Assembly (NCBI GenBank): GCA_048884785.1
Contig: JBHLQM010000005.1
Location: forward strand, 9,272-73,271
Source: Candidatus Thorarchaeota archaeon
GTDB taxonomy: Archaea > Asgardarchaeota > Thorarchaeia > Thorarchaeales > Thorarchaeaceae
DNA length: 64,000 nucleotides
Reading direction: 5' to 3'
The first letter of the stretch is position 1. Each line of letters opens with the position of its first letter. Shown here one piece after another: positions 2,097-18,096 of the stretch. The notes under the pieces were generated by a model. It was given only the letters and a program-made list of their open reading frames with translations. It was not told where the DNA came from and ran no database searches. The position numbers and the translations under genes are program-made.

Positions 2097-2107
2097 GAGG
2101 AAATGAA

Positions 2108-2554
2108 ATGCCAAAGATTGATGATATATTTCCGGATGTGGGAATACTCCCTGCGATGATTATTGTTGTAGTCATAGGAATCGCTTTGCAGTTAAGTGGA
2201 GCATGGATCACAATGATTATCGCTGGTGCGTTCGGAGGACTCTTCACAAGACGTCATCGAAGCTCGTTCTTTGCGGGATTCCTTGGTGTAGCAATAGCAT
2301 GGACTATCTTGTTCATCTATCTCATTATGACGGCACAGGCGCTAGCAATTGCTGAGTTCTTTATTGGGCTTTTAGGAATATCTGGAGGGTTCATTGTAAT
2401 TGTCATTAGCATCATCCTGGGTGCTCTTCTTGGTGGCTTTGGAGGCCTTCTTGGAAGATCGCTTGTTGAACTATTGGATGAATTCCTGACAAGAGACAGT
2501 GATAGAAAGCAACTCTCTGCAGAATCTAGTAAAGGTGCTTCCACAACAGAATAG
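2108..2554 (+). CDS. Small membrane protein (Gly-rich TM helices, DUF5518-like)
   Basis: About 4 hydrophobic helices with GxxGG motifs; GGAGG SD just after the upstream stop. Confidence 0.7.
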   Translation: MPKIDDIFPDVGILPAMIIVVVIGIALQLSGAWITMIIAGAFGGLFTRRHRSSFFAGFLGVAIAWTILFIYLIMTAQALAIAEFFIGLLGISGGFIVIVISIILGALLGGFGGLLGRSLVELLDEFLTRDSDRKQLSAESSKGASTTE

Positions 2555-2596
2555 GAATTGGCAAAAATGATGACTGTGGCGATCGATGCCACAGCA

Positions 2597-3175
2597 TCAT
2601 GCATTTTTCCTGATTCTTCTAACAGCAATAAACACGAAAGAGACGGTACTGACACTCACCAATAGTATCAGTATGATAAATGAGACATTCAGCTGTCCTT
2701 CGTTTTGAAGTATCGATGCGCGAATCTGTTTCCCATAGACAGATGAGTCGTTGTCAAAAATGACATACCATTGTCCCGAGTAGGGAATTTCAACATGCCA
2801 TGAGAGACTTGTAACATCACTGGCACAATATAGCGGAGTGCAGTTCTCTCCAGCAAGCAGCAAATCCATATTGGTCTGATCTGATACATAGAAGTCCACT
2901 CCCGCCCCCCAGCCAACCCATAAATCATATTTCTGCTGGTCGCCATAGTACAGGTCTCCGTCAATTGCTACTGTGAAAGAACCAGTCAATGTGTCACCTG
3001 ACTGGCAAGTGCACATTAGAATCTTGGTCGACAAAGGAAAAAGCCAAAACTCGTAGGAAACCGTATCAATATCCGATATCTCATCCGACTGAACTAATCC
3101 ATATACCGGCATTATTAGTAATAGGGCAATTATTCCTTCGAGTAATACGCGCTTTACCAAAAGCATTTCTGTCAA
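2597..3175 (-). CDS. Type I membrane protein with GOLD/emp24-like beta-sandwich
   Basis: N-terminal signal peptide, GDTLTGSFTV...VDFYV...IPYSGQWYVIFDNDSS..K, C-terminal TM helix and short basic tail. Confidence 0.55.
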   Translation of the reverse strand: MTEMLLVKRVLLEGIIALLLIMPVYGLVQSDEISDIDTVSYEFWLFPLSTKILMCTCQSGDTLTGSFTVAIDGDLYYGDQQKYDLWVGWGAGVDFYVSDQTNMDLLLAGENCTPLYCASDVTSLSWHVEIPYSGQWYVIFDNDSSVYGKQIRASILQNEGQLNVSFIILILLVSVSTVSFVFIAVRRIRKNA

Positions 3176-3292
3176 TGAATAATTCGCCTCATTTACTCAT
3201 ATGTTTTGTGAACGAAGGCTTTCTGACAAATCACATAAGGTAGAGCTTTTATTGCCTGCCTGCAGGAACTAGAACTATAATTCAGGACAGGA

Positions 3293-4483
3293 ATGAAAAT
3301 GCATCGCGAGATAACTAAAGGAGTCTACTATGTCGGAGTTGATGACCATCACACAGATCTATTTGAGAACTTGTGGAAACTCCCCTTTGGCGTGAGCTAT
3401 AACAGCTACTTGATAGTAGATGAGAAGATTGCCATTGTTGAAACAGTCAAGGGGCCTTGGGCAGAGGAATGGCTTGATAATATACGAGAGATTGTTGACC
3501 CTTCTAATATCGATTACATTATACTAAATCACATGGAACCAGACCATACGGGATCGCTGCCGGATTTATCTAAGATTGTCCCTAATGCCACTATTGTCTA
3601 TACTCCCTTTGCATCCAAAATGAGATATTCATTCTATGATGTTCCGAATCCAGAAAAGACTGTTGAGGACCTTGAAGAAATCTCTCTTGGAGGAAAGACT
3701 CTCAAATTCATTCATGCGAAATTCCTTCACTGGCCTGAAACAATGATGACATATCTTGTAGAAGATGAGATTCTCCTTTCTTGTGATGCATTTGGAGCAT
3801 TTGGAGCCCTCAATGGAAAAATATTCGATGATGAAGCAAACATGGAACTCGTTGAGAAGGAAAGCTGGCGATATGTTTCATCAATTATCACAAGTTACTT
3901 CAAGTTCGTGCAGGCAGGAATAAAGAAGGTTCAGGAACTCGGCATTGGCATCAAGGTAATTGGTCCGAGTCATGGACCGGTTTATCGCAAGGATCCCTTG
4001 TGGATTGTTCAAAAGTATGCAGAATGGAGCAGTCCGGAGCTCGAGAAATATTGTACCATCGTCTATGGCACAATGTACGGATTCACCCACAGAGCCGCAA
4101 TGATGCTGAAAAAAGAGCTGATTGAACTGGGAGTTCAAGTAAAACTTCACAATGTGTCCTATAGCGAAATGAGCAAGATAATCACAGATTCCGTTCGTGC
4201 TGGAGTTCTTGTCATTGGCACACCAACCTATGATGCATTTCCGTATCCAAAAGTATGGGCTTTCGTTAATGAAGTTGAGGGCAAAAGGTTTCCAAAACGA
4301 CCAATCGGTCTTTTCGGGACATATGGTTGGGGTGGCGGTGGAGTAAAGAAATTGCGAGAGCAACTGGAGAACAGCAACTACGATATCATTGAACCAGTTG
4401 TTAGGGTTCATGGAAAAGCACGAGAGGACGAACTTGGTTTAATCAGGAATCTTGCCAAAGCCATTGCAGATATTCTGAAATAG
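3293..4483 (+). CDS. fprA: Flavodiiron protein (FprA/A-type flavoprotein; O2/NO reductase)
   Basis: GVSYNSYLI, NHMEPDH, LHWPE, SCDAFG, PSHG metallo-beta-lactamase ligands followed by a flavodoxin domain (TMYG, FGTYGWGG). Confidence 0.93.
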   Translation: MKMHREITKGVYYVGVDDHHTDLFENLWKLPFGVSYNSYLIVDEKIAIVETVKGPWAEEWLDNIREIVDPSNIDYIILNHMEPDHTGSLPDLSKIVPNATIVYTPFASKMRYSFYDVPNPEKTVEDLEEISLGGKTLKFIHAKFLHWPETMMTYLVEDEILLSCDAFGAFGALNGKIFDDEANMELVEKESWRYVSSIITSYFKFVQAGIKKVQELGIGIKVIGPSHGPVYRKDPLWIVQKYAEWSSPELEKYCTIVYGTMYGFTHRAAMMLKKELIELGVQVKLHNVSYSEMSKIITDSVRAGVLVIGTPTYDAFPYPKVWAFVNEVEGKRFPKRPIGLFGTYGWGGGGVKKLREQLENSNYDIIEPVVRVHGKAREDELGLIRNLAKAIADILK

Positions 4484-4494
4484 AAACATAGAGG

Positions 4495-5058
4495 ATGAAA
4501 ACTATGGCTAAAACTGCCGATCCATACTCCCGAGAAGACGAACTAGAAATGGAAATGTATTCTTGGAGTAGAAGCGATGACATAAAGGAAACATTGCACA
4601 CTCTCATCTCACACCATCCACCATCACTCTATTCTCATTGTCTACGTGTTTCATTCCTTGGTCGGTCTATTTACTTCTGCAGTAGATGCAGTGGTATCTA
4701 CGGAGGTATGGGAATTGGTGTACTGGCAATCTTCCTCTTGCAGGTGTCTATGCGGCCATCATGGCTTTGGTTTATGCTGGCATTGGTACTAGGGTTCTCA
4801 ACAGTTGTAGATTGGATGAGTCAGAGGCTTTCACCAAGAAAAACACGAAATTCCGTTCGTTTTATAACAGGCTTTCTATCTGGTGTTGGGCTTGCTATTG
4901 TCTTTCTACTCGCAGACCTGCTCTACATGCTAATAACTTTGGGAATCATGGTTGCAGCTGTGGGGATTGTTGGTTTGTTGGAAAGCAAACTCCGCCCGCC
5001 GGCCGCCAATGCTTTGGTCGATGCATCTGAGGATGAAATCAACAAAGAAACCAAGTAG
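4495..5058 (+). CDS. DUF2085-family membrane protein
   Basis: CSRCSGIYGG motif, DW.SQ, N..R..TG..G pattern, 4 TM helices. Confidence 0.75.
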   Translation: MKTMAKTADPYSREDELEMEMYSWSRSDDIKETLHTLISHHPPSLYSHCLRVSFLGRSIYFCSRCSGIYGGMGIGVLAIFLLQVSMRPSWLWFMLALVLGFSTVVDWMSQRLSPRKTRNSVRFITGFLSGVGLAIVFLLADLLYMLITLGIMVAAVGIVGLLESKLRPPAANALVDASEDEINKETK

Positions 5059-5111
5059 GGGCACATCGCGGCATAGCAAAGGGTTTTAATCTATCTGAAT
5101 GTTCGTGCCAA

Positions 5112-6260
5112 ATGGTGAATGATATGATTCCCTTCGCCAAACCTATTATTGACCGAGAAGAACAAGAGGCCGTTCAGGCAGTTCTAGAGTCAGGAATGCT
5201 TGCAGAGGGCAAGATATCTCGAGAATTTGAGAAGGAATTTGCAGATTTTGTTGGAACAAAATTTGCCACTGTTACATCAAATGGAACAACTGCCCTCAGT
5301 ACTGCTTTGGATGCAATGGGAATTCAGCCTGGTGATGAAGTAGTTACATCTCCATTCACATTCATTGCTTCCGCAAATACAATCGCAATGCAGGGTGCAA
5401 TTCCAATTTTCGTTGACGTGGATTTATCTACGTATAACATAGACCCTCACAAGATTGAAGCCGCAATCACCGAGAAGACCCGCGCAATCATGCCAATTCA
5501 CATCTTTGGTTTACCAAGTGATATGAAGCATATAATGGAGATTGCGGAAAAACATGATCTAATGGTAATAGAGGATGCATGTCAGGCACATGGAGCCAAA
5601 GTTGGGAACAGATTTGTAGGGTCAATTGGACATGTTGGCGCATTCTCATTCTATGCCACCAAAAACATGATGACTGGCGAAGGAGGCATGATAACGACAA
5701 ACGACGAGGAAATTCTTGACCGAGCGCTAATGATTAAGAACCATGGAAGAGGCAAGGGCGGAGGTTATAGCCACTTTCAGATTGGGTACAACAATAGAAT
5801 GATGGATATTGTTTCAGCGCTTGGGCGAGTTCAGCTAAAGAGGCTTCCTAGCTCCACTATGATTCGAAGGAAGAACGCGGAGAGGTACAATAAAATATTC
5901 TCCGAATTTGAAGACGTGACTCCTCAGAAAGAGCCAGAAGGAATCATGTCATCCTATCATGTGTATGCACCTAGAATAAAATCAAATAGAATAAACAGAG
6001 ATGAAATGATCAATAGACTCAAAGAGCAAAATATTGGCGCAAGGACAGTATACGCGTTGCCTTGCCACAAGCAGGAAACCTACCTCAGTATTAAGAATTG
6101 GCGCTGGGCAAAGTTCGTTGAGTACCCCGACTATTCAAAGGTCAGCTTGCCTATTTCAGAAGAGGTTGGTGCAACGCATTTTGATATCCCTGTTCATCCA
6201 AGCCTCACCCAACAGGAGTTAGATCATATTGAAAGCGCTATCCGGTCAATCCTCTCCTGA
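5112..6260 (+). CDS. DegT/DnrJ/EryC1/StrS family PLP-dependent sugar aminotransferase
   Basis: SNGTTAL, EDACQAHGA, FSFYATKNMMTGEGG (PLP Lys), GYNNRM. Confidence 0.93.
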   Translation: MVNDMIPFAKPIIDREEQEAVQAVLESGMLAEGKISREFEKEFADFVGTKFATVTSNGTTALSTALDAMGIQPGDEVVTSPFTFIASANTIAMQGAIPIFVDVDLSTYNIDPHKIEAAITEKTRAIMPIHIFGLPSDMKHIMEIAEKHDLMVIEDACQAHGAKVGNRFVGSIGHVGAFSFYATKNMMTGEGGMITTNDEEILDRALMIKNHGRGKGGGYSHFQIGYNNRMMDIVSALGRVQLKRLPSSTMIRRKNAERYNKIFSEFEDVTPQKEPEGIMSSYHVYAPRIKSNRINRDEMINRLKEQNIGARTVYALPCHKQETYLSIKNWRWAKFVEYPDYSKVSLPISEEVGATHFDIPVHPSLTQQELDHIESAIRSILS

Positions 6261-6460
6261 ATGTCTGGCGAATTTAGAACCTGAGGCACCGCTTTGGACT
6301 AAAAGTCCTGCTCAATAGCATATGTTGTTTCGGTGTAGAGTGCAACTCGATTTCCATTGAAATGAATGGTATGCAGCCTTTAGTAAACTAGTAGTCCATT
6401 CTTTGTTAGAGCAATATAAGAGAAAACATCATAACAGCATTATCAACTCAGAACTCTGAG

Positions 6461-7591
6461 ATGAGATCACTTCCAAATATCAAGCCTAGCAAAGGTACGG
6501 CCTCCAAAGACAAGAAAACCACTGAGTTTACTCTTGGTAGGACTCAACGGAACATCCTTGAAAAGTTGCTAGTTATTTGTGGACGTTTGGAAAGTAGTGA
6601 CATAGGGATTATAGAACGGAAAGCCAATGAACTCAATGTGGATTTTGTGCGAGAAAAGCGCAATTCCTGGATTTTTATTCAACAGACAATTAGGGAGCGC
6701 TTTGATCCAGGGCGTCATGAAGGCATTCTCCTAATTGGATCAAACAAGGAATTGCCTGGCACTCAGATTAGCTATGAAGGCGCCTTTGCATATACGGATT
6801 GGTTTTTTCAAGATGTTGATGGGGATGATTTACCTGATACGCCTGTCGGACGTATCTTTGGACCATTGGAAACAATTCTATATCATCTGGACCCTCGAAT
6901 TATTGACAGCAATATAGCAGTAATATTTGACTCGCAACCAGGAAGGTCAATGAGGCATGTTGAAGGACTCACAAAATTGGGTTTTAACGTTGAGATTCTG
7001 AAGGAATTCTCGCAAAAATACGCTAACCTACTGAGTGTGAGCGAGTTTATTCTTCAATTCTCAGATGGCGTGTTCAGTTCCAGAATACACGGAACTCCTG
7101 AAAAATGGGCAAGTCATAATTCAGATATTTTAACAAGTGTTCAAACCGAACAGATTCAGTTTGAAGGATATCCTGTAGTATATTCCGAGGCTTGCAGTAC
7201 TGCCCAAGAAGGTCCATTACTCAAAGCCTTCCTAAATCAAGGAGCCGCTTACATTGGAGCAACTCTTGATACTTTGAACAATGTTGAACCATTCGATGAA
7301 TGGCAAAGCTGCGCATATGCAGACGGCTGGAAATTTGGTTTCCTTGATTTACTTGATAGTCGAGATACAATTGGACAAGTCAAAATTGGTGTAGATAGAG
7401 AAATCACTGCAAACCTCGGACCAGGACCAGCTGCAGAAATTAATGCAATCAGGCGTGGTGATACATCTGTTCTCCGAGCTGATGAGGCCGTTTCGACAAT
7501 TGAGTGGGTTCTTTTTGGTAATCCCATGCGAAGAAGCACCGTTGGTCCAAATGCAGATTATTCACCAGGGCGACTTATGGTTGATACGTAG
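6461..7591 (+). CDS. Peptidase C25 (gingipain)-like protein, no signal peptide
   Basis: LLIGS...LP, TDWFFQDVDGDDLPDTPVGR, IHG (His), SEACS (Cys), GAAYIGAT, WVLFGNP. Confidence 0.6.
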   Translation: MRSLPNIKPSKGTASKDKKTTEFTLGRTQRNILEKLLVICGRLESSDIGIIERKANELNVDFVREKRNSWIFIQQTIRERFDPGRHEGILLIGSNKELPGTQISYEGAFAYTDWFFQDVDGDDLPDTPVGRIFGPLETILYHLDPRIIDSNIAVIFDSQPGRSMRHVEGLTKLGFNVEILKEFSQKYANLLSVSEFILQFSDGVFSSRIHGTPEKWASHNSDILTSVQTEQIQFEGYPVVYSEACSTAQEGPLLKAFLNQGAAYIGATLDTLNNVEPFDEWQSCAYADGWKFGFLDLLDSRDTIGQVKIGVDREITANLGPGPAAEINAIRRGDTSVLRADEAVSTIEWVLFGNPMRRSTVGPNADYSPGRLMVDT

Positions 7592-7592
7592 C

Positions 7593-7994
7593 TTACTCAA
7601 TCCGGATTCGTTTTCCCAGCAATCCACCAACATATCCTCCAAAGAATCCGACTGCGCTGAGAATTAGGCCAGATACTACAAGCTGCAAATAGAACCACGA
7701 AAGATTTTCATAAATTTCAGCCAGCGTTGCTTGCCCTGACGAAACTAACGAATCGATTATAGCTGGAGCAATAAGTAAAAGCATAGGCAGAAATGAAACC
7801 AGCGAACCTGCAAACGAGGCTAATGCACCTTCTTTTGATTTTTTTATCAGATAGCCTATAATAATTCCAGATACAAAGGGTGTAAAGATGTAAAGCAAGA
7901 AGTAAAGGCCCACATTTAGGAGTGCAGCGGCAATCACGATACCAAAAATGAAGATTCGGTTTGCTTTCTCATTTGGAATCTTTACTTCATTCAT
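7593..7994 (-). CDS. Small membrane protein (DUF5518-like)
   Basis: 4 TM helices, PFVSGIIIGY and GFFGGYVGG motifs; start refined to MNEVK. Confidence 0.7.
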   Translation of the reverse strand: MNEVKIPNEKANRIFIFGIVIAAALLNVGLYFLLYIFTPFVSGIIIGYLIKKSKEGALASFAGSLVSFLPMLLLIAPAIIDSLVSSGQATLAEIYENLSWFYLQLVVSGLILSAVGFFGGYVGGLLGKRIRIE

Positions 7995-8105
7995 GGTTTG
8001 CACTAAATTTATCGAAATCATACGCAATTTAACAATGCCTATTGAACATAATCGCATGTGTTTTGAGATGGTTTTTATTTCATTATGACAAGGAACGGAT
8101 GTTTG

Positions 8106-8996
8106 ATGGAAGCAATATTAGAAGTCCCTGCTCATTACGATCTTATGGCATCGGTCCACTCATGGGTCTATCCAGATATTCAACCTGTTCCAGAAACGAC
8201 ACGGGATAGTGCATTCTCACGAGTGTTCACCATTGGAAATGATTCAATCGCAATCTGCCTAGAGCAAAGCAAACCAGGCGAACCGATCCGAGTACTAACC
8301 AACAGAAACAACATCTCAGTGAAAAGTGTGGTGTCGAAATTACGTTGGATTCTAAATTTGAATCTCAATTTAGAACCAGTTTTGAGAGTCTTTGAAAAAG
8401 ACCCTGTATTAGAACGCATACACAATTCTATCAGAGGAGTTAGACCGTATCTTGCGGACACTCCATATGAAGCTCTTATCAAGTCAATAATACAGCAGCA
8501 AATTTCGTATAAAGCAGCAAACGTGATTACAAAAAAGTTAGTGCTTGGCCTTGGAGAAATATTTGAAAACCACGAAACTCAATACCAATTTCCTAGTGCA
8601 GAACGCATAGTCACTGCAGGCAAAAGCGCGCTTCGATCATATGGACTAGGATATAAGACGGACTATCTCTATGACATCTGTGAGTTAATAGAAAAGGATG
8701 AACTACAGATCCAGGCATTGGTCGGTTTGCCCTATCAAGATGTATATGAGCAACTCATCCCGTTGCGAGGTATTGGGGAGTGGACAATTCAGGCACTGGC
8801 GATAGCAGGGTTGGGAAATTTCACAGTCTTTCCATATTCAGATTTAGCCGTTCAGAAAGCATTGGGACGTCTGTTTTCATTTGGTAAGAGATTTTCAAAG
8901 AATGAAGTTATCACCTTGTCCAACTCGATTGGAGAAAATGGTCCTCTTGTCCTTTACTTGATAATGTGTGCCGAGGTTCTTGGTTTCATAGGCTAG
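8106..8996 (+). CDS. alkA: DNA-3-methyladenine glycosylase II / HhH-GPD family
   Basis: EALIKSIIQQQIS, FPSAE, GLGYK, LRGIGEWT HhH motif, FPYSD catalytic Asp. Confidence 0.85.
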   Translation: MEAILEVPAHYDLMASVHSWVYPDIQPVPETTRDSAFSRVFTIGNDSIAICLEQSKPGEPIRVLTNRNNISVKSVVSKLRWILNLNLNLEPVLRVFEKDPVLERIHNSIRGVRPYLADTPYEALIKSIIQQQISYKAANVITKKLVLGLGEIFENHETQYQFPSAERIVTAGKSALRSYGLGYKTDYLYDICELIEKDELQIQALVGLPYQDVYEQLIPLRGIGEWTIQALAIAGLGNFTVFPYSDLAVQKALGRLFSFGKRFSKNEVITLSNSIGENGPLVLYLIMCAEVLGFIG

Positions 8997-9063
8997 AGAA
9001 GACATCAAGAAATCCATAAAAGGTGAGATTTCACAAACAGATTTGATGAATAGGTGAGCATGA

Positions 9064-10206
9064 TTGGCAGCGATTGGGAAGAAGAACAACAAGATCTGGC
9101 GAATATGGTCCATGTTTCTAAAAGAACTCCAACTGATTCGCAAAGATAAGTTCGCACTTCTTCTTGTCTTCGCATTACCATTGATGATTATGGGCACAAT
9201 GTATATTGCGATTAATCAGGGCACCTTTCAGAATCCGGGAGCGAATACCAGTGCACTTGTAGTTGGCGTAGTTGATGCAGATCCAACTGATACTTTTCCT
9301 GAGCAAGATCTTTCTGCAAACTTCACGTGGTATTTGACACAGAGTGACGATTTCATTGTGATTATCTATGATGATGAGGTAGATGCACGGCTGGCATTGT
9401 ATCAAGACACTGTCAAAGCCTATGCGGTCATTCCCTATGGATTTGAGGGAAACATCACTGGTGATATACCAGCATTTGTAGACATTCATATTAGCAGTAC
9501 GGATTTTGAGAGCCAGGCTAGTGTGTTTGGTGCGTTTTCAAGAGTTGTAAATGATTTTAGATATGATCATGGGTGGATAAAGGGTGAGATAAAGTACGTT
9601 CGAGTTGGAGAATTTCAGCCACAAGGCAATCGAACTGCTGCGACTTTTGGAGTGTTTATGATTGTGTTTTCTGTATTCATCGCAGTTTCGGCAACTGCAG
9701 CTCAAGCAATTGTTGGTGATGTCCCTCTTAACAGAATGCTTCTGACACCCGCCACAAAAATGGAGGCAATTCTGGCGAAAACTCTGGGATATTTCGTTGT
9801 GGGCCTCATTCAGGCAATTTTCCTGCTTGCATTATGGATTGGATTGTTTTCGATAGTTCCGAACACGAGCATTTTTGTTCTTCTATTCATCCTCATGTTG
9901 ATGGCGATATCTGGATCGGCACTAGGAGTTCTCATTTCAACAGTAGTTAGTACTCGACTCCAAGCGAATCAATCGTTCCTATTCCTTTTATTTGGTTCAC
10001 TCATTGTTGGGACAGGATTCATGGACGTTGGAATACTTGATGAACTCTACCCTTTGAATTTAGGCCGCGTTATGATGATTGATACAGCATTCAAGGGAGT
10101 CGATATTGGTCTTTTTACCCGAGAGATTGGATTAATCCTCTTTATGTCATTGGTCTTCATCATGATAGCATATGGAATATACGTAAGAAGAACAACGTTA
10201 GCGTAA
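9064..10206 (+). CDS. ABC-2 type transporter permease (YhhJ/YbhS-like)
   Basis: KEL..I.KDK N-terminus, extracellular loop, LLTP...AK motif, about 6 TM helices. Confidence 0.85.
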   Translation: MAAIGKKNNKIWRIWSMFLKELQLIRKDKFALLLVFALPLMIMGTMYIAINQGTFQNPGANTSALVVGVVDADPTDTFPEQDLSANFTWYLTQSDDFIVIIYDDEVDARLALYQDTVKAYAVIPYGFEGNITGDIPAFVDIHISSTDFESQASVFGAFSRVVNDFRYDHGWIKGEIKYVRVGEFQPQGNRTAATFGVFMIVFSVFIAVSATAAQAIVGDVPLNRMLLTPATKMEAILAKTLGYFVVGLIQAIFLLALWIGLFSIVPNTSIFVLLFILMLMAISGSALGVLISTVVSTRLQANQSFLFLLFGSLIVGTGFMDVGILDELYPLNLGRVMMIDTAFKGVDIGLFTREIGLILFMSLVFIMIAYGIYVRRTTLA

Positions 10207-10273
10207 GGGTATATTTGGCAACAGCAATAAGGGTTGAATCCCTTTGATTATCACCTATACGGTGGTTTTACTC

Positions 10274-10477
10274 ATGGGTGTTGTAAAAGTCATAGAGCTT
10301 ATTGGAGAGAGTCCAAATAGCTGGGAAGAGGCGACAAGAAACGCCTTGGATGTAGCGGCAAAAAGCGTTCGCGGAATAGTTGGAATCGATGTTGATCATT
10401 TTACCGCAAAAGTGGTGGAAAATAAGATTACAGCATTCAGAGCGAATATACGTGTCGCTTTCAAGTATGAGGGATAA
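10274..10477 (+). CDS. Dodecin family flavin-binding protein
   Basis: VKVIELIGESPNSWEEATRNA...A.KSVRGI, typical ~67 aa length. Confidence 0.9.
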   Translation: MGVVKVIELIGESPNSWEEATRNALDVAAKSVRGIVGIDVDHFTAKVVENKITAFRANIRVAFKYEG

Positions 10478-10499
10478 GGTTTTTCCTCAATGATAAATT

Positions 10500-10523
10500 G
10501 AGAGTGGATTTTTTTCCACTCTC
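10500..10523. terminator. 9-bp hairpin between convergent dodecin and CPBP genes
   Basis: GAGAGTGGA-TTTTTT-TCCACTCTC perfect inverted repeat. Confidence 0.55.
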
Positions 10524-10538
10524 GTAATTCTTTCCTGA

Positions 10539-11432
10539 TTAGAATCCTAGGAATGCGAAAACTACAACTGCTGCGTTATTGAATCCATGTGCAACAGTTG
10601 GACCCAAGATGGAATACTGTCGTCTTGCCGCAAGGTATCCCAGGAAAAGCCCAAGGACAAAACGAGCCGCGAATCCTAAAAGATCAAGATGCATGATAGA
10701 GAAAATGGCTGAGGTTATTACTAGAGCAATCATCTTGAAATTCGTTGAGCGGCTTCTGAAGAAAATCTCCATTCTTCTCTGTAGGAAACCACGGAAAAGG
10801 AGTTCTTCACTGAATCCTACTATCAAGAACATTACAACTATCCAGCCAATCAGCTCTAATACATCACTGCTTTGAAAGAGTACTACTGAGTCATCAATCT
10901 CTGCACCAGAACCAAGAGTAACAATCCATGTTATGATTATATTTGATATTAACATTAAAACTCCGAAGCCAAGACCTAGGGCGATGTCCTTTAATGCCTC
11001 AGAACGTGATGACGTAAATGCAACTGGTACACTACGGGGCATATCAGCTCCATCCCCAACACCTTGGATTCCAACTCTTTTAGCAAATCTTCGAGGAATC
11101 TTGATCCCAAGGGAATCCAATCCGAAACCATTTCTACGTGCATACCAAATGGGAGGAATGATGAAACCAAGCTCCGCAAAGGTCAGTAAGATGAGCACCC
11201 ATGGGGCAAATTCAATTTGCCCAGTAAAATAATTAACATCAATAAAACCGAAAAGAAGGAGAGGAAGCTCCAATGCAAATGTAATTCCGAAAGTCAGCGC
11301 GAATCCGACACCTGTTAGAAGCAGCACTCGAAATAGAACATCCCAGTTCACTTCACGCTCAATTACCTTTCCTGGTTCATAAATCTCAATGTCGTAGTAT
11401 TCATCCATATCGTGAAAGTCAGGGTCATCCAT
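10539..11432 (-). CDS. CPBP family intramembrane glutamic endopeptidase (CAAX protease/Abi)
   Basis: EELLFRG, FSIMH, AHGFNN motifs, multiple TM helices. Confidence 0.92.
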   Translation of the reverse strand: MDDPDFHDMDEYYDIEIYEPGKVIEREVNWDVLFRVLLLTGVGFALTFGITFALELPLLLFGFIDVNYFTGQIEFAPWVLILLTFAELGFIIPPIWYARRNGFGLDSLGIKIPRRFAKRVGIQGVGDGADMPRSVPVAFTSSRSEALKDIALGLGFGVLMLISNIIITWIVTLGSGAEIDDSVVLFQSSDVLELIGWIVVMFLIVGFSEELLFRGFLQRRMEIFFRSRSTNFKMIALVITSAIFSIMHLDLLGFAARFVLGLFLGYLAARRQYSILGPTVAHGFNNAAVVVFAFLGF

Positions 11433-11573
11433 AACCAAAAGGGGCAACCTCAAAAGACTTCTAGTGGAACAAGAGATAAGCGTTTAGATAGACGTTATTG
11501 CTGGTTCCACATATGCTTTATCAAGAGAATATATTTCCTTAACATCAGTACATTTACTCTCGAGGTTCTTTTG

Positions 11574-13580
11574 ATGGACGAGATCATTGATGAGAATGGG
11601 CCCAACCGTGGAAAGGCACTACTGGTCATATCAATGGTCATTGTTGCAACAACATTCGCATTCTTGATACTCCCGAGAGCATTTGGACCGCCAGAGCTCA
11701 CAGTAAGAGTGGGTGTAATAGATTCAGGGATGGATAAAGACAGCTTTCTTGTAGGGCACATTGTAGCCGAAGCTAGCTTCATCAATTCAACCTACGGATA
11801 TAGGAATATCGACAGCTCCACTGAAGACTCAAAACCTCACGGTACAAGTCATGGAAATTACGTTGCCAGAATTATTGTTGAAGAAGCTCCACATGCAGCT
11901 ATTATAAATGCCAAGGTTGTCAATTCTGCAAATAAGGCAACAGCTGCTGCAATTATTGCTGCAATTGAATGGGCTGTAATTGAACAAGAATGTGATGTAA
12001 TTAATCTAAGTCTTGGAGGGACACCAAGCAATCTGGACGGAATCCATCAAATTGTCAAATGGGCGTTCTCCCGGGGTGTAGTTATTGTTGCAGCTGCCGG
12101 CAACAATGCTCAGGGAGGAATTACTGGAAGTTCAATAGAATCTCCTGCAGTTTATAGCGAGGTTATTTCTGTTGGTGCTGTGGATGAATCCGAAAAACCG
12201 TATCCCTTCTCTGGAATTGGACCCTTAGTAAACCGAACCCTTAAGCCGGATATTTCCGCACCAGGTTATTTCCATGATACAAGTGTTTCATTATATGGAA
12301 CGAGCTTTGCAACGCCATATGTAACAGCAGGTGCAGCAGAACTAATCAACTACTGCAAAGAGAATGGATGGAAATGGACACCTGGAATGATCAAGGCAAC
12401 CATTTTGGAGAGTTCAAAGTATCTTGGTTATGAGCATTGGCAAGTTGGTGCAGGACTCCTTGATATTGATAGCGCGATAAAACTTATCAATAGTGCAGAG
12501 AAAATCGACAACTTGCCAATTGTTGTGTATATGACATCTGATTTGGGAGAATATGAATTCGAAAGGTGGTTTGCTAATACAACCGTTAGAATTAGAGCTA
12601 GCGTATTCAGTAGCAATAACGCAACATTCATAGTTAGAATCTCAGGAACTGCTCGTCCATGGATAAGTGCGCCTGATAGGATTACAATGAATCAGACCTA
12701 TGAAATTCCTATATCAATCAGATTAGAATCACTCATAACTTGGACGAGTCTTCAGGCTCAAATATCTCTCGAATCAAATGTATATAGATCAGTTTCCTCT
12801 AAATTGACTTTTGGCATGACTATACCATTACGCAAGGTGGCCTTCGACTTGTCACATACACCTTGGTGGATGGATTCCATATATGGGCAGTTCAGAGAAT
12901 TCTACTCGCGAGCAACGTCCCTAGGCATCTCAGTTGAAGAAATAAGGGATAGATCGGATGTAACATTTGAGAACCTCCGTTCATTTGATGCCATCATCAT
13001 TCTTGATCCATGTGCATGGGAATTTATCGAAATCGAAGAAAGAGCTGTGCCCTATCAGTCCATTAGGTATTCAGTGGAGGAGCTGGCTGCCTACAGTACA
13101 TATTGGAATAAGGGAGGCAATATCATGATAGCTGGGGGAAGTAATTTCACTATCGATGTTGAAGGGGCCAATCAGCTTCTCTCAATATTTAATATCACTC
13201 TCAATTTTGATAGTGTCCCTATGTCAACCTTCCTTGTGAATGGTGTAGCAAATTCAATCAAAGTCATTGATATTATAGAACATCCTATAACTGAGTTGGT
13301 TTCATCCTTTGATTATAATGGCGCAACATTATCGGTGACCAAGAATCAAACCATAGTTGCACAGGCCCTAACTGAATGGGTAGATACTGGAGGAGTAAGG
13401 CATTCTGCACTCAAGCCGGTACTTGTGGCAGCTGAAGGTCGAGCAGCAGCAAGGTTGGTTGTGACAGGAAGCAATTTTTTCATCGATAATTGGGGTTTAA
13501 ACGGTATTTATGGTTCCCACGATAATTCGCTCATGATGATCGGGTGCCTGTATTGGCTTACTCATGTGCCAGGATTCTAG
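11574..13580 (+). CDS. Membrane-anchored subtilisin-like S8 serine protease with C-terminal GATase-like/DUF4350-type domain
   Basis: N-terminal TM; triad VIDSG (D), HGNYVA (H), GTSFATP (S); AAGN oxyanion Asn; many NxS/T sequons. Start refined to an ATG with a GAGGT SD. Confidence 0.88.
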   Translation: MDEIIDENGPNRGKALLVISMVIVATTFAFLILPRAFGPPELTVRVGVIDSGMDKDSFLVGHIVAEASFINSTYGYRNIDSSTEDSKPHGTSHGNYVARIIVEEAPHAAIINAKVVNSANKATAAAIIAAIEWAVIEQECDVINLSLGGTPSNLDGIHQIVKWAFSRGVVIVAAAGNNAQGGITGSSIESPAVYSEVISVGAVDESEKPYPFSGIGPLVNRTLKPDISAPGYFHDTSVSLYGTSFATPYVTAGAAELINYCKENGWKWTPGMIKATILESSKYLGYEHWQVGAGLLDIDSAIKLINSAEKIDNLPIVVYMTSDLGEYEFERWFANTTVRIRASVFSSNNATFIVRISGTARPWISAPDRITMNQTYEIPISIRLESLITWTSLQAQISLESNVYRSVSSKLTFGMTIPLRKVAFDLSHTPWWMDSIYGQFREFYSRATSLGISVEEIRDRSDVTFENLRSFDAIIILDPCAWEFIEIEERAVPYQSIRYSVEELAAYSTYWNKGGNIMIAGGSNFTIDVEGANQLLSIFNITLNFDSVPMSTFLVNGVANSIKVIDIIEHPITELVSSFDYNGATLSVTKNQTIVAQALTEWVDTGGVRHSALKPVLVAAEGRAAARLVVTGSNFFIDNWGLNGIYGSHDNSLMMIGCLYWLTHVPGF

Positions 13581-13960
13581 AGCAGAGGGGCTATCTTCTC
13601 AGTTGCTGTCTTTGCAGCATAGACAAGAAGACCGGTTTTCATGTCTTTTCTTGCAGCTAAAACAAGTATCGCCTTCTCACCTGCTCCTTTCATAATTATG
13701 AGACCCTGCTCGTTGGTAATTAGGATTTCCTCGAGAGCACCCTGCTCTAATCTTTCGGCTGCCAAGTCAGCAACACCAAGAATGGAAGCAGACATAGCTG
13801 CTATTTCGGCCTCTTCCAGGCCTTGAGGAACAGCCGATGAGATTGGAAGACCTTCCTTTGATAATAGAAGCCATGCACGAACACCGGTCGCTAGAGCAAG
13901 GGCTTCCTCCATTATCTCTCTGAATTTCCCTTGTAGCTCTTCAAAGCTCGGATCGAACAT
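13577..13960 (-). CDS. Roadblock/LC7 (MglB-like) protein
   Basis: LLSKEGLPISS...IAAMSASIL..A....L.QG.LEEILI....G; GAGGTGA SD before MFDPS. Confidence 0.92.
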   Translation of the reverse strand: MFDPSFEELQGKFREIMEEALALATGVRAWLLLSKEGLPISSAVPQGLEEAEIAAMSASILGVADLAAERLEQGALEEILITNEQGLIIMKGAGEKAILVLAARKDMKTGLLVYAAKTATEKIAPLL

Positions 13961-14101
13961 TTTCACCTCACTTCCGGTGCAAGCATGCCTATACCTTTCA
14001 TGCAATTGCGCATTAATAAAGTTTGGTTGAACATTCGGAATTATTAAGGGTGAAGTATGCATTCTTTTTGAAATAGAGTAAGATGTAGAAAGTGTCAGCC
14101 G

Positions 14102-14737
14102 ATGAATTCAGTTTACAAGTTACCACAAGATGCAAACGGGGAGCATCATATACATTGGAAAACAGGAATCAGAGTACTCGCCATTTCGGAAAGTTTTCGG
14201 AAAGGAGATACCTATAGCTACGTTGCAGGCGTAGTTATGCGCGGTGACCTTCGGATAGATGGTTTTTCTTTTTGCAGACCAACTGTAGGAGGCAGTGATG
14301 CGACAGAAAAGGTACTCGGCTTGTATCGGACATTGAATCGCCAAGACCTCAGAGCATGGTTGTTGGGTGGAAGTATAATATCTTGGTTCAATACGATAGA
14401 CATTCATCAGCTATTAAGGGAAACAAAATTGCCAGTTGTTTGTGTTTCCTATTGGCCTTCAGAGGGTCTTGAGAAGTATGTTAGAGAGTATTTCCCTCAG
14501 GATTGGCAGAACAGAATGAAGACAATTGAATCTGTGGGAGAGAGAGAAGAGATTATTCTATCAGAAAGATTCAAAGTTTTCATCACCAGGGCTGGCATGG
14601 ATTTGCATTCAGCAAGGTCCCTCGTAAATCATTTCACACGTGATGGTAGAATTCCAGAACCAATTAGAGTTGCAAGACAGCTTGCGGCAAGTATCAGAAA
14701 ATTCCACCTGCAAAGTGAAAACTCTCGCGTCTTATAG
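14102..14737 (+). CDS. DUF99/UPF0215 family protein (endonuclease V-like fold)
   Basis: RVLAISESF, GVVMRGD..IDG, VGGSDAT, WFN.ID, IPEPIRVA. Confidence 0.85.
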   Translation: MNSVYKLPQDANGEHHIHWKTGIRVLAISESFRKGDTYSYVAGVVMRGDLRIDGFSFCRPTVGGSDATEKVLGLYRTLNRQDLRAWLLGGSIISWFNTIDIHQLLRETKLPVVCVSYWPSEGLEKYVREYFPQDWQNRMKTIESVGEREEIILSERFKVFITRAGMDLHSARSLVNHFTRDGRIPEPIRVARQLAASIRKFHLQSENSRVL

Positions 14738-15340
14738 CCTTTTCAAATTGGCTTCATGTTCAGCGGAAAGAAAATCGAAGATTTCATTGGCTAGGGGTAG
14801 ATTCAAAGAATTGAGTTTGTCTTGACCCGATCTAAAGAACTGTGCCAGAATGGAGGGCTTCACTCCATTCCTCTCAAGTAGAATTGCGTGAAATAGCATA
14901 TCTAACACATCTGATCCTTGGACGATCTTGCTTTCAAGCGATACAGATTCAGAAAATTCCTGCAATAAACTTACAGATTCCTGACGGAATTCATTTAATC
15001 GGGAGAATATTGCCTTCAATGCAGCTAGCTCAGCATTCCTCTTTCCGATACGAAACTGATCTCCTCCAAGTTCAGTTGCAGTTAGAGGGACATCAGATAT
15101 TTTGGATTCGGCCAAATCATGTATAATAGCCATTGCAAGTGCCTTTTCCAAATCCAGCTTTTCGCCAGAGGATATTAGGCTCTTTGATATAAGCAGTGTA
15201 AGGAATGTTGTTCCCCAAGTATGTTCGGCTACAGATTCATCTCGACCTAGCCGAACCCCTGCAATGCTCCATCCTGTTCTCAACATCCTCTTTGTGGACG
15301 TGGCATGAATAAATGTTTCAATAATGTTTTCTGCATTCAT
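14732..15340 (-). CDS. HD-domain 5'-deoxynucleotidase (YfbR/HDDC2-like)
   Basis: RTGW...G...ESVAEH, IHDLAES..SD, SDVLDM. Confidence 0.88.
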   Translation of the reverse strand: MNAENIIETFIHATSTKRMLRTGWSIAGVRLGRDESVAEHTWGTTFLTLLISKSLISSGEKLDLEKALAMAIIHDLAESKISDVPLTATELGGDQFRIGKRNAELAALKAIFSRLNEFRQESVSLLQEFSESVSLESKIVQGSDVLDMLFHAILLERNGVKPSILAQFFRSGQDKLNSLNLPLANEIFDFLSAEHEANLKRL

Positions 15341-15363
15341 TGTAGCTTCACCGCAGACCAATA

Positions 15364-15383
15364 GAGGGGGTGTCATCCCCCTC
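15364..15383. terminator. GC-rich hairpin downstream of the BMP gene
   Basis: GAGGGGG-TGTCAT-CCCCCTC. Confidence 0.45.
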
Positions 15384-15395
15384 AATCTGTTAAAG

Positions 15396-16529
15396 CTATG
15401 GAGGAACTGGAGAATCTATTGTAATTACACCAGGGTTGGTTCGAATCCATTCCCTATAGTAATCTAGAGCTTCATAGAGTTCAGCCGGCAAGTAAGTCGA
15501 ACTATATGGGAAATCAGTTATATTAACTCCACCATTAGTCAGGTCATACTCAAGAACCTCATTTGCGGGAAATACGTTCCATAGTGTCTTGTTGATTATA
15601 TCGTAAATTGCTTCAGCAGTGCCTGACAGAACACTTGTTGTAATCCAACTTGGAGCAACAGGAATGTCTGGATTATTTGTTCCAAAATAGTCCTGATTTC
15701 CTTCTGCAGCAATAACTAGGGGCATTCTCCCTGCAACTAGTTGACTCGGTGGGAATGAGTCTGCTGCTCTAAGCATACCCTCTCTCACTCCAGGCATACT
15801 GGCTCGAACTGGGGCGAATATCACCGATATGCCATGTATTGCAAACATAGTATATGTCTGAAGTTCTGCATTGATGGTATTGTTCCAGCTGTTTATGTAG
15901 TTGATTTCTGTCAAAGTCACATTCAAATTATAAGTCGAATTCGCAGCCTCTACGCCCTGAATAAATCCGTTAATCAATGGTAGGAGCTCTGTATCGCCTT
16001 CTACAGCTGCTAAGATACCAATCTCACCATCAAATGGCTCGTCTCCATAGTAAGGCATCTCATGTGCCATAAAAGCCGCAACAACTCCACCCAAGAAAGC
16101 ACTCTCTTCTACGGCATAGATAGCTGATGCAACATTATCAAGTGCAACATCTGCTCCAATCATTCCGAACTTTTGGTTGGGAAAGCTAGTTGCAACCGTC
16201 TGCACAGCTGGAGCAAGATCGGCTCCAATAGCTAGAATAAGGTCGTATAAACCTGTAGTTGCAAGTGATTCCATTATTGACCGAGCTTCAGGTACACTTG
16301 TTGGCAATTGAGGTGGAATATAGTACTGTACAGAAACGTCTCCGGCTAGTTGCTCCATGCCTTCAAGGGCAGTATCGGCTTTGCTCATATCGCCGAAGCC
16401 TGGCTCCATGACTACCACGGCAATTCTTGAAGGTTCATATGGATTGGCGATTAAAATCATGGCACCAACACTTCCGAAAACAATAGCAATAATTATGATA
16501 GATATTATCATGTGGGACCTTGAGCTCAA
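15396..16529 (-). CDS. BMP/PnrA family substrate-binding protein with N-terminal TM anchor
   Basis: GFGDMS...ALEG, YDLILAIG, FPNQKF, EESAFLGG.VAA, GF.QGV, QDY, TTSVL. Confidence 0.82.
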   Translation of the reverse strand: MSSRSHMIISIIIIAIVFGSVGAMILIANPYEPSRIAVVVMEPGFGDMSKADTALEGMEQLAGDVSVQYYIPPQLPTSVPEARSIMESLATTGLYDLILAIGADLAPAVQTVATSFPNQKFGMIGADVALDNVASAIYAVEESAFLGGVVAAFMAHEMPYYGDEPFDGEIGILAAVEGDTELLPLINGFIQGVEAANSTYNLNVTLTEINYINSWNNTINAELQTYTMFAIHGISVIFAPVRASMPGVREGMLRAADSFPPSQLVAGRMPLVIAAEGNQDYFGTNNPDIPVAPSWITTSVLSGTAEAIYDIINKTLWNVFPANEVLEYDLTNGGVNITDFPYSSTYLPAELYEALDYYREWIRTNPGVITIDSPVPP

Positions 16530-16699
16530 GATGCTTCCTCCAAGGTAATTGAGCCCTCCTCGAAACGGGTGTGATTTAAACTTGTCGACCTTGGTATCCT
16601 ATATGGAAAAGCAAAAACCATAGGTCTAATTAGGTGAGAGAGTGACGTATAAATAAGACGAATGTCATTGGAATGATAGCTTCGAAGCAGGTTAGGACT

Positions 16700-17416
16700 A
16701 TGCCAGGCAGTGTTTTAGCAGAAGTAGCAACCCTCCTAGAGGAGGCTCTAAAGCTCCATAAAGCAATACGAGGTGTGGTTCTCTGCACAAAAGAGGGGGT
16801 AGTTGTTGCATCTGTTTCCAAGGATGATGAAATTAACCCAACACTACTATCTACAGTTTCTGCGGCATTGGTATGGGCAGGAAATACAACTCTCAATTTG
16901 ATAAGTGGATCTAGGCCTTCATATCTCATTCAAACAACACCAGTTATTAGAATTCTAACCTTATTACAGCAGCACTTTCAAATCGTTGTCGTTCTTTCAA
17001 GAGCAGATGATTCTGAGCTTATTATTGAGGAGTTGCTTCCAACACTCCAATCATTAGGAACTCGTATTGAAATATTGATGAGTTCGAGAAAAGGATTCGA
17101 AACAAGTACAATTCTTGGCCGTATTGTTGAAGCAATGCCTGATGTCACACAAGCAATGGTTTTAACAGCAGAAGGATTGCCCATCGGTTCTGTAGGGTTT
17201 CAGAATGACATTGAAATTGCTGCACTTGTTGGATCGATATTTGCCAATGGCATGACATTTTCTGACCTCACTGATACGATCTTCATCAGTTCGGAGGAAA
17301 TTAATGTGGTAGTTCAGAAAATAGATGATCAGCGCCTCTTGGCGGTTGTATGTAAAGGAGACAGTTCAGAGGGTATAAGTGAAAGAATTAAAGAAATCAC
17401 TGAAATTGGAACCTAG
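16700..17416 (+). CDS. Tandem (two-domain) roadblock/LC7 protein
   Basis: Two repeats: IRGVVLCTKEGVVVAS...LLSTVSAAL and VTQAMVLTAEGLPIGS...IAALVGSI. Confidence 0.75.
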   Translation: MPGSVLAEVATLLEEALKLHKAIRGVVLCTKEGVVVASVSKDDEINPTLLSTVSAALVWAGNTTLNLISGSRPSYLIQTTPVIRILTLLQQHFQIVVVLSRADDSELIIEELLPTLQSLGTRIEILMSSRKGFETSTILGRIVEAMPDVTQAMVLTAEGLPIGSVGFQNDIEIAALVGSIFANGMTFSDLTDTIFISSEEINVVVQKIDDQRLLAVVCKGDSSEGISERIKEITEIGT

Positions 17417-17418
17417 TT

Positions 17419-18096
17419 TTACTCATCAAGCATATCGTCCTCTTCTTCAGTAAAATCAAATTGCCACTCTCTTAGATTGATTCTGATATAGCAATCCTTT
17501 CCTTTTTCTGGACAATCTATACGAATGAGAACTTGTTCAGGAGATGATTCCTTAATCTGCGGATTTAGGCACCCATCTTCCAACTTCTCCATTAGAAACA
17601 AAACGTACGTTTCTGTAATCGTATTTAGAGAACCCTCCATTAGCGCATTTCCTAGATCAGCAAGATAATGTTTCTTCTTGCGACCCGCCCTCTCAACACG
17701 AATCAGGCCAACTTCTTCCATTCTGGATATATGCCATCTCACGGTATCGTGGTGGACGCCTAAACTCTCAGCCATTTGCTCTTGATAGCATCCGGGATTA
17801 TTCACTACAAAGGCAAAGACTTTCCTAGCAGTTTCGCTCCGCATGGTCAAGAATGCCATCTCAGCTTCTCTTGATCTCAGCATTCTAGGATAGTACAGGC
17901 GCTTTCCTGCAAATTTGATTGATTTAACGAGCCCCTCTCGTTCAAGAATTCTCAGGTGCCAAGTGAGGGTGCCTAGTGGACTCTCAAGCAGATCCACGAG
18001 CTCGAGCAAGTATGTACCAGGATTCTCGCAGAGGATCTGATAAAGGTCTCTTCTAAACGGATGCAGCAGCAATGTCAATCGTTTCTGCTTACCCAT
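17419..18096 (-). CDS. Tandem winged-HTH (ArsR-like) transcriptional regulator
   Basis: Two repeats of NPG...EL...L....TL.WHL..LE..GL (ENPGTY/NNPGCY). Confidence 0.85.
   Translation of the reverse strand: MGKQKRLTLLLHPFRRDLYQILCENPGTYLLELVDLLESPLGTLTWHLRILEREGLVKSIKFAGKRLYYPRMLRSREAEMAFLTMRSETARKVFAFVVNNPGCYQEQMAESLGVHHDTVRWHISRMEEVGLIRVERAGRKKKHYLADLGNALMEGSLNTITETYVLFLMEKLEDGCLNPQIKESSPEQVLIRIDCPEKGKDCYIRINLREWQFDFTEEEDDMLDE

Follow-up and report, generated by a model that had tools for sequence, protein, structure and literature searches.

A putative membrane-tethered, S1P-like subtilase encoded beside a CPBP intramembrane protease gene in Candidatus Thorarchaeota

A stretch of 64,000 nucleotides from a Candidatus Thorarchaeota archaeon (GenBank assembly GCA_048884785.1, contig JBHLQM010000005.1, positions 9,272 to 73,271 of the forward strand), hereafter the window, carries two divergently transcribed protease genes, which are the subject of this analysis (Table 1). 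One encodes a subtilase in which a Peptidase S8 catalytic domain is followed by a beta-sandwich and a GIFT domain (the S8-GIFT subtilase), and the other encodes a CPBP/Rce1-like glutamic intramembrane protease. The longer open reading frames listed mechanically for the two genes overlap each other; start codons were set by ortholog alignments, which placed that of the subtilase at the ATG at position 11574 and that of the CPBP protein at the ATG at position 11432. An initial annotation of this DNA had described the genes as lying head to head about 140 nucleotides apart with their catalytic motifs intact, and these observations were borne out. The spacer is 141 nucleotides long, the three CPBP motifs (EExxxR, FxxxH, and HxxxN) are invariant in 7 orthologs, and the Asp-His-Ser triad of the subtilase is invariant in 41 aligned homologs. 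The strings quoted in the same annotation from the region behind the S8 domain (RKVAFDLSH, GQFREFY, SLGISVE, EELAA, GGNI, ANQLLS.FN, and RLVV.G) are all present in the subtilase translation. Alignment of the spacer with six orthologous spacers revealed 19 invariant columns, and the conserved blocks may represent two back-to-back core promoters.

Table 1. Features of the protease gene pair and its permease neighbor (window coordinates)
Feature	Position	Strand	Details
ABC-2 permease gene	9064..10206	+	Pfam ABC2_membrane_3, E 4.6e-25
CPBP/Rce1-like glutamic intramembrane protease gene	10539..11432	-	297 aa; Pfam Rce1-like, E 7.3e-18, residues 194-287
CPBP motifs	EExxxR 10791-10808; FxxxH 10689-10703; HxxxN 10575-10589	-	E209-E210-x3-R214; F244-x3-H248; H282-x3-N286; invariant in 7 orthologs
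Divergent intergenic region	11433..11573		141 nt; short blocks GATAAG, TTGCT, and CTTTAT kept among orthologs
S8-GIFT subtilase gene	11574..13580 (stop included)	+	668 aa; Pfam Peptidase_S8, E 1.1e-40, residues 44-289
N-terminal transmembrane signal-anchor	11607..11672	+	about residues 12-33; AlphaFold helix 12-31; hydrophobic window from residue 13
S8 catalytic domain	11694..12488	+	residues 41-305
S8 catalytic residues	D50 11721-11723; H93 11850-11852; oxyanion N177 12102-12104; S244 12303-12305	+	
Beta-sandwich ("P-like") domain	12489..12827	+	residues 306-418; all-beta in model
GIFT domain (GATase1-like fold)	12828..13577	+	residues 419-668

The subtilase belongs to the S8 family (PF00082) by its fold, by the order Asp-His-Ser of its catalytic residues, and by its oxyanion Asn; D50, H93, N177, and S244 were all unchanged across the 41 aligned homologs. 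NCBIfam returned no family above its cut-off for this protein or for the CPBP protein. The S8 domain begins about 8 residues past the N-terminal helix, and neither a signal peptide nor autoprocessed N-terminal prodomains of the kind found in eukaryotic site-1 protease (S1P, also MBTPS1 or SKI-1) are present. The chain stops right after the GIFT domain, and the C-terminal transmembrane helix and short basic cytosolic tail of S1P are likewise missing. The body of the subtilase most likely faces outward, because it carries nine N-x-S/T sequons (13.5 per 1000 residues, five of them retained in at least 30 of 41 homologs), while none occurs in seven neighboring window proteins.

A whole-protein AlphaFold model was built from the alignment of 41 homologs and reached a predicted local distance difference test score (pLDDT) of 90.5 and a predicted template modeling score of 0.86. 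Its layout, with a helix followed by the S8, all-beta, and alpha/beta domains, is the one given in Table 1, where the limits of the S8 and all-beta domains are approximate. When the model was searched by Foldseek against the Protein Data Bank (PDB), human S1P emerged as the top match (9csd_A, E 1.3e-35; 8uw8_A, E 1.9e-32), with template modeling (TM) scores of 0.69 to 0.71 over 745 columns; the next entry followed at E 1.3e-23, and classical subtilisins reached a TM score of 0.33. VIA-align superposed 562 residues on 8uw8_A (Z 41.0, root mean square deviation [rmsd] 3.1 Å), placing residues 41 to 668 of the model on residues 206 to 876 of the chain, and the beta-sandwich is included among the superposed residues. 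For comparison, the superposition on subtilisin BPN' covered 234 residues (Z 34.8, rmsd 1.4 Å, 35% identity).

According to the domain description in the S1P-SPRING cryo-EM report (PMC11231238), mature S1P consists of a Peptidase S8 domain (residues 187 to 478), a P-like beta-sandwich (479 to 616), and a GIFT subdomain (617 to 998), with prodomains preceding the S8 domain and a C-terminal helix following GIFT. Because the VIA-align range fits this domain order, the model can be read as collinear with S1P, its three domains superposing together. In the predicted model, the S8, P-like beta-sandwich, and GIFT domains thus pack into one body. The placement of the sandwich appears to be S1P-like rather than generic, because Tk-SP, an archaeal subtilase with a beta-jelly-roll behind its S8 domain, aligns poorly as a whole in Foldseek (rmsd 9.6 to 11.9 Å). 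As judged from the model, the likeness to S1P holds for fold, domain order, and domain packing and is weak at the level of sequence.

The C-terminal domain was also folded alone (residues 417 to 668, 12 sequences, pLDDT 87.9). Foldseek matched it best to the N-terminal GIFT domain of IFT52 (E 6.8e-13), followed by S1P (E 5.2e-10) and OST48/Wbp1 (about 7e-9), with ThuA-like and GATase1-like proteins ranking below these. An exhaustive VIA-align comparison gave the same leading groups: IFT52-N (Z 22.4), OST48 (Z 20.3), and residues 616 to 877 of S1P (Z 19.2). The five best matches were all IFT52, OST48, or S1P (Z 22.4 to 17.2), and GATase1-like folds appeared from Z 16.3 downward. Its GATase1-like alpha/beta fold, together with profile similarity to GIFT families, assigns this domain to GIFT, and on the predicted fold it is a GIFT domain, though not specifically that of S1P.

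At the sequence level, the C-terminal region used as a single sequence had no significant match among PDB sequences. In the same database, a C-terminal profile made from Thorarchaeota sequences only reached IFT52 at E 8.9e-4, and S1P was not among its matches up to E 10. A broader profile from 17 Asgard sequences detected IFT52 (E 1.3e-10), S1P (E 5.2e-4), and OST48 (E 0.012), and its S1P match was in register (profile positions 99 to 322 on chain residues 601 to 854). Neither Pfam MBTPS1_3rd (PF23094) nor MBTPS1_4th (PF23090) matched the subtilase at E <= 0.01; at E <= 10, MBTPS1_4th was found in one of 12 family members (E 0.026) and MBTPS1_3rd in none of the 12, and a PF23090 search of the genome did not match the subtilase gene. 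Pfam IFT52_GIFT fell below its cut-off for the subtilase (E 0.095), and the relative P0222 scored above that cut-off (29.8 bits). A whole-family profile scored higher against BPN' (2e-43) than against S1P (3e-29), the alignment being limited to the S8 stretch.

These comparisons qualify the suggestion, made in the initial annotation, that the region behind the catalytic domain resembles that of human MBTPS1 and that the protein may be an S1P relative. The resemblance stands for fold, domain order, and packing, with S1P as the top structural match, and extends to the broad-profile match to the S1P GIFT domain. Taken by itself, the C-terminal domain does match the GIFT domain of S1P, but IFT52 and OST48 match it at least equally well and GATase1-like folds come next. 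Closeness of the S8 domain to MBTPS1 was not supported by the profile scores, which favor BPN', and the resemblance as a whole is weak at the sequence level.

Compared with known enzymes, the Thorarchaeota subtilase shares with eukaryotic S1P (PDB 8UW8 and 9CSD) the order and mutual packing of the S8, beta-sandwich, and GIFT domains, an intact triad and oxyanion Asn, and membrane tethering. It differs in lacking a signal peptide and the A/B prodomains, in being anchored by an N-terminal rather than a C-terminal helix, in the size of its GIFT domain (about 250 residues compared to about 380 in S1P), in an overall identity of 19% with no MBTPS1_3rd or MBTPS1_4th match, and in having no S2P-type gene beside it. 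Bacterial subtilisins of the S8A group (BPN' and Carlsberg) share the catalytic domain, at 35% identity for BPN'; unlike the Thorarchaeota protein, they have a cleavable propeptide, are secreted and unanchored, and contain neither sandwich nor GIFT domain. Tk-SP from Thermococcus kodakarensis (PDB 3AFG and 9UES) shares with the Thorarchaeota protein a beta-sandwich after S8, but this sandwich is placed differently and no GIFT domain is present. By structure, the C-terminal domain is matched best by the GIFT domains of IFT52 and OST48/Wbp1, and by sequence IFT52 again matches best; these proteins are not proteases but subunits of intraflagellar transport and oligosaccharyltransferase, respectively.

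Close homologs of the subtilase form 52 clusters of about 665 residues, and all named ones are from Thorarchaeota or Promethearchaeota. A search of 1.84 billion representative sequences with a profile covering sandwich and GIFT retrieved 509 proteins at E <= 1e-3, 40 of them at E <= 1e-30; Peptidase_S8 was present in 30 of 30 matches scanned. Thirty clusters were looked up, nine of which have a source name. Seven of these names include a taxon, and all seven are Asgard labels: Njordarchaeia (two), Odinarchaeota (one), Thorarchaeota (two), Heimdallarchaeota (one), and a further Njord cluster, which also contains partial members labeled Korarchaeota and Latescibacterota. The two remaining names, free of any taxon, are "parallel beta-helix repeat protein" and "hypothetical protein." Among genomes of the phylum, 361 of 400 had a match at E <= 1e-5, as did 84 of the 85 genomes in the family to which the window belongs. 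Only in five genomes were weak matches inspected; in four, the best frame spans the sandwich and GIFT domain behind S8, and in the fifth (G149), part of the GIFT domain lies behind S8.

Two forms of the protein were distinguished among 133 distinct members with full profile coverage. In the 58 short forms, a helix is present at the N terminus only (52 of 58), or no helix is found and the sequence is N-terminally incomplete (6 of 58). The 75 long forms have pro-regions of at least 60 residues, and a C-terminal helix is present in 65. Across 131 distinct members, the catalytic Asp is kept in 127, His in 120, and both Asn and Ser in 131. Four long forms, P0077 and P0091 (Njord), P0085 (Odin), and P0222 (f22), begin with a hydrophobic signal at the N terminus and continue with a pro-region of about 130 to 220 residues, the S8, sandwich, and GIFT domains, in some cases extra immunoglobulin-like domains, and finally a helix and a basic tail at the C terminus. 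A FastTree tree separated short and long forms with 99% Shimodaira-Hasegawa-like support. As this tree has no outgroup, it is the narrower distribution of the short form that suggests it is the derived one. The genome of the window itself encodes, in addition to the subtilase, another paralog of the short form on contig 22 (39% identity), a 976-residue long form on contig 33, and an ABC-2-linked copy with a dead active site on contig 69 (L136, 1-5509). By sequence, the long Asgard forms come closest to Tk-SP (E 1.7e-37); for the contig 33 paralog, this match reaches E 3.1e-48 with the propeptide included, and S1P is absent from its best 60 PDB matches.

Further observations concern individual members of the family. 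P0222 (G149, L137 4233-8231; 1333 aa) carries a zinc ribbon on the cytosolic side beyond its C-terminal helix (Pfam Zn_Ribbon_1, E 2.2e-5), so that an S1P-like ectodomain is joined to a cytoplasmic zinc finger. At L131 (G291, 5369-10738) and L132 (G296, 902-13671), long Njord-type S8-GIFT genes lie amid genes of an oligopeptide ABC importer (SBP_bac_5, BPD_transp_1, and oligo_HPY), which suggests a unit of protease and peptide uptake serving nutritional protein degradation in those relatives; the window subtilase gene does not have this context. A tandem-duplicated segment at L123 (G015, 7874-17492) contains S8-GIFT, HMG-CoA-synthase-like, and thiolase genes, and its second S8 copy is cut to 606 residues and has a TAG within the matched region. 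A 730-residue S8-GIFT gene of a sister group, at L127 (G085, 6422-8546), adjoins genes for Vps4-like (MIT, AAA, and Vps4_C) and ESCRT-II-like proteins. Finally, P0088, which has a 620-residue polytopic N terminus before a short-form S8 domain, was considered as a fusion with CPBP and rejected, as no CPBP similarity was found (best E 0.56).

The CPBP gene was then assessed in its genomic setting. Its product belongs to the CPBP/Rce1-like family (PF02517) by its motifs and Pfam match, and this genome contains 10 Rce1-like loci, the CPBP gene among them. Three loci of the M50 (S2P-type) family are present, all on other contigs. A loop insertion of 31 residues (about residues 112 to 142; window 11007-11099, minus strand) is missing from all six aligned orthologs. 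The CPBP gene lies divergently upstream of the subtilase gene in all six ortholog loci, which come from other species. A further 30 loci from the family, including that of the window, were examined, and the N-terminal part of CPBP was found in 28; of the two exceptions, one is truncated by a contig end, and in the other (G352) CPBP is 2.3 kb away, separated by a 2.3-kb insert.

This pairing is embedded in a larger syntenic block, which runs from C25-like, DUF5518, HhH-GPD, ABC-2 permease, and dodecin genes through CPBP and S8 to Roadblock, endonuclease dU, HD, Bmp, Roadblock, and winged helix-turn-helix genes. The whole 12-gene block is collinear in all loci with CPBP-S8 adjacency, and adjacency therefore adds no information beyond membership in the same family. 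In three genomes from two genera (G392, G394, and G319; completeness 96, 88, and 97%), the block and CPBP are kept, and no S8 gene lies between CPBP and Roadblock; the ABC-2 permease also persists in genomes without this S8 gene. Fourteen other S8-GIFT loci, comprising paralogs and other Asgard families, were searched with a CPBP profile, and CPBP was found in one. In this locus, L129, whose genome belongs to the same order, CPBP lies 4.4 kb from S8 with three genes between and is still beside an ABC-2 permease. A Pfam scan of 12 of the 14 loci returned the same single case; the two left out of that scan, L128 and L133, have profile matches in the same order as those of L127. The nearest relatives of CPBP outside the family are weak (E 1e-13 to 1e-24), and the distance to the S8-GIFT gene is 277 kb in G002, while in G149 the relative is on a different contig.

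With regard to the neighboring genes, the two Roadblock/LC7 genes of the block are at window positions 13577-14062 (minus strand) and 16673-17416 (plus strand). The former is convergent with the subtilase gene and overlaps its stop codon by 4 nucleotides. The gene at 6461-7591 (plus strand) encodes a conserved protein of 376 residues (55 to 69% identity among orthologs) with a faint Pfam Peptidase_C25 (gingipain-like) match (E 7.7e-6, residues 83 to 132) and no NCBIfam match.

Among longer proteins matching the CPBP profile, 22 of 24 are fusions of an ABC-2 permease with CPBP. In one of these, P0227, the window permease aligns to residues 8 to 152 and the window CPBP protein to residues 431 to 626, each at E 2e-9. 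The CPBP protein also matches the CPBP end of NCBIfam NF041647, the family of fused ABC-2 permease/CPBP proteins (E 4.5e-13, 48.8 bits against a cut-off of 435), and no match to NF041647 was found for the permease. The NF041647 fusions are single proteins, whereas in the window the permease and CPBP are encoded by separate, convergent genes with a dodecin gene in between; the two genes remain adjacent in L129, where S8 lies apart. The pair resembles the known fusion split into two convergent genes. Because ABC-2 domains are carried by 22 of the 24 longer relatives and both window genes map onto P0227, the permease is the more plausible, better-supported associate of CPBP than the S8 protein.

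Overall, we consider it probable that the window encodes a membrane-tethered, catalytically intact, S1P-like subtilase acting in surface proteolysis and that the CPBP gene beside it belongs to a separate protein, there by gene order. The single N-terminal helix would anchor the subtilase in the membrane with its body outward, and the S8, beta-sandwich, and non-catalytic GIFT domains would pack as they do in human S1P. By analogy with S1P, the sandwich and GIFT domain may buttress the catalytic domain, since the S1P GIFT subdomain is described as stabilizing loops around the oxyanion residue in the structural account cited above (PMC11231238). The job of such an enzyme would be cell-surface proteolysis, either in processing of envelope proteins or in degradation of external protein. 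CPBP would be a separate, intact intramembrane protease whose likelier associate is the ABC-2 permease.

A number of observations speak against parts of this interpretation. The three-domain body comes from a predicted model, and the evidence on orientation is limited to flanking charges and the number of sequons. For a secreted subtilase it is unusual to lack a propeptide, which may point to an inward-facing orientation, and one source labels a homolog "major intracellular serine protease." The recurrent CPBP-S8 adjacency and the conserved spacer blocks may reflect co-regulation of the two genes, and the genomes without this S8 copy still have a paralog elsewhere.

S1P cuts membrane-bound precursors luminally, after which S2P, an M50 protease, cuts within the membrane. 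By analogy, the initial annotation had proposed a two-step module in which the subtilase would cut a membrane-bound substrate outside and CPBP would then cut it within the membrane. The short divergent spacer with its conserved blocks, the presence of the arrangement at the 6 ortholog and 28 further loci, and the intact motifs of both enzymes speak for such a module, but the loci that show the adjacency are wholly syntenic over 12 genes. CPBP is kept without S8 in G392, G394, and G319, the insert in G352 separates the two genes, and the more distant S8-GIFT genes are without CPBP in 13 of 14 loci; in G002 and G149, the relative of CPBP is far from the S8-GIFT gene or on another contig. No S8 domain was found in the 24 longer CPBP relatives, although this is weak evidence, as only the 8000 best candidates were scored. 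With 10 Rce1-like loci in the genome, with the M50 loci elsewhere, and with a neighbor that is not M50, neither co-occurrence beyond synteny nor fusion of the kind expected for S1P-S2P-type coupling was observed, and we regard the module as very unlikely. The expectation that the divergent pair would be conserved across Asgard genomes likewise held inside the one syntenic block and failed beyond it. The S8-CPBP adjacency looks like a product of conserved gene order.

A different partner for the subtilase would be the ABC-2 permease itself. The GIFT protein GldG docks on the transporter protein GldF, and the GIFT domain could similarly dock the subtilase on an ABC-2 transporter that includes the window permease. 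The permease gene is 1.4 kb upstream, and the paralogs at L126 (G117) and L136 directly adjoin ABC-2 transporter genes (ABC_tran and ABC2_membrane_3). In these paralogs, however, the active sites are dead, with Pro in place of His or Leu in place of Ser and with Asp in place of the oxyanion Asn, whereas that of the window subtilase is intact. Two genes lie between the permease and the subtilase, which belong to separate transcription units, and the permease is retained where this S8 gene is missing. A role as a transporter accessory is thus very unlikely.

Regardless of its partners, the subtilase raises the question of how S1P itself arose. It is possible, and we put this forward tentatively, as the less probable side of the question, that MBTPS1 came from the stock of Asgard membrane proteases in which S8, sandwich, and GIFT domains are combined. 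One ancestral three-domain enzyme would then underlie both, with the long forms retaining the ancestral layout and the window protein being a shortened, re-anchored offshoot. In line with this, the three domains superpose on S1P as one rigid body, the Njord, Odin, and f22 long forms follow the same plan from signal peptide and pro-region to C-terminal helix and basic tail, the broad profile meets the S1P GIFT domain in register, and all seven taxon-named clusters are labeled Asgard. ESM Atlas searches, taken as leads only, pointed in the same direction: by features, a eukaryotic MBTPS1 cluster ranked first for the subtilase (0.87); by structure, residues 305 to 668 matched an MBTPS1 cluster with a TM score of 0.73; and with the Njord long form P0091 as query, nine eukaryotic MBTPS1 clusters took ranks 2 to 10 (0.93), after the Asgard cluster of P0091 itself (0.98) and above bacterial S8 clusters. 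Against common descent, the S8 profile favors BPN' over S1P on the S8 stretch that was aligned, the long forms match Tk-SP best with S1P outside their 60 best PDB matches, and the GIFT domain resembles that of IFT52 more closely than that of S1P. The MBTPS1-specific Pfam families are nearly absent from the 12 members searched, and bacterial proteins among the ESM Atlas leads also pair sandwich and GIFT domains behind other domains, including peptidases (e.g., M28).

The part of a subtilase phylogeny that treats the S1P group proposes a eukaryotic origin as likely (PMC6713707). In our literature search, no report linking Asgard archaea with MBTPS1/S1P or with GIFT, IFT52, or subtilase was found, nor any prokaryotic counterpart of the full S1P body plan.

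For the locus itself, the lesson is negative: the picture of an S1P next to an intramembrane protease stems from gene order. S1P starts the proteolysis by which SREBP, ATF6, and related factors are activated. If common descent is true, S1P, the gatekeeper of SREBP/ATF6 signaling, would be an Asgard-derived eukaryotic signature protein. The existence of an Asgard-wide three-domain family, with long forms that share the membrane topology of S1P, makes the origin of S1P directly testable, and the Asgard enzymes would offer simpler models for what the sandwich and GIFT domains contribute to a subtilase.

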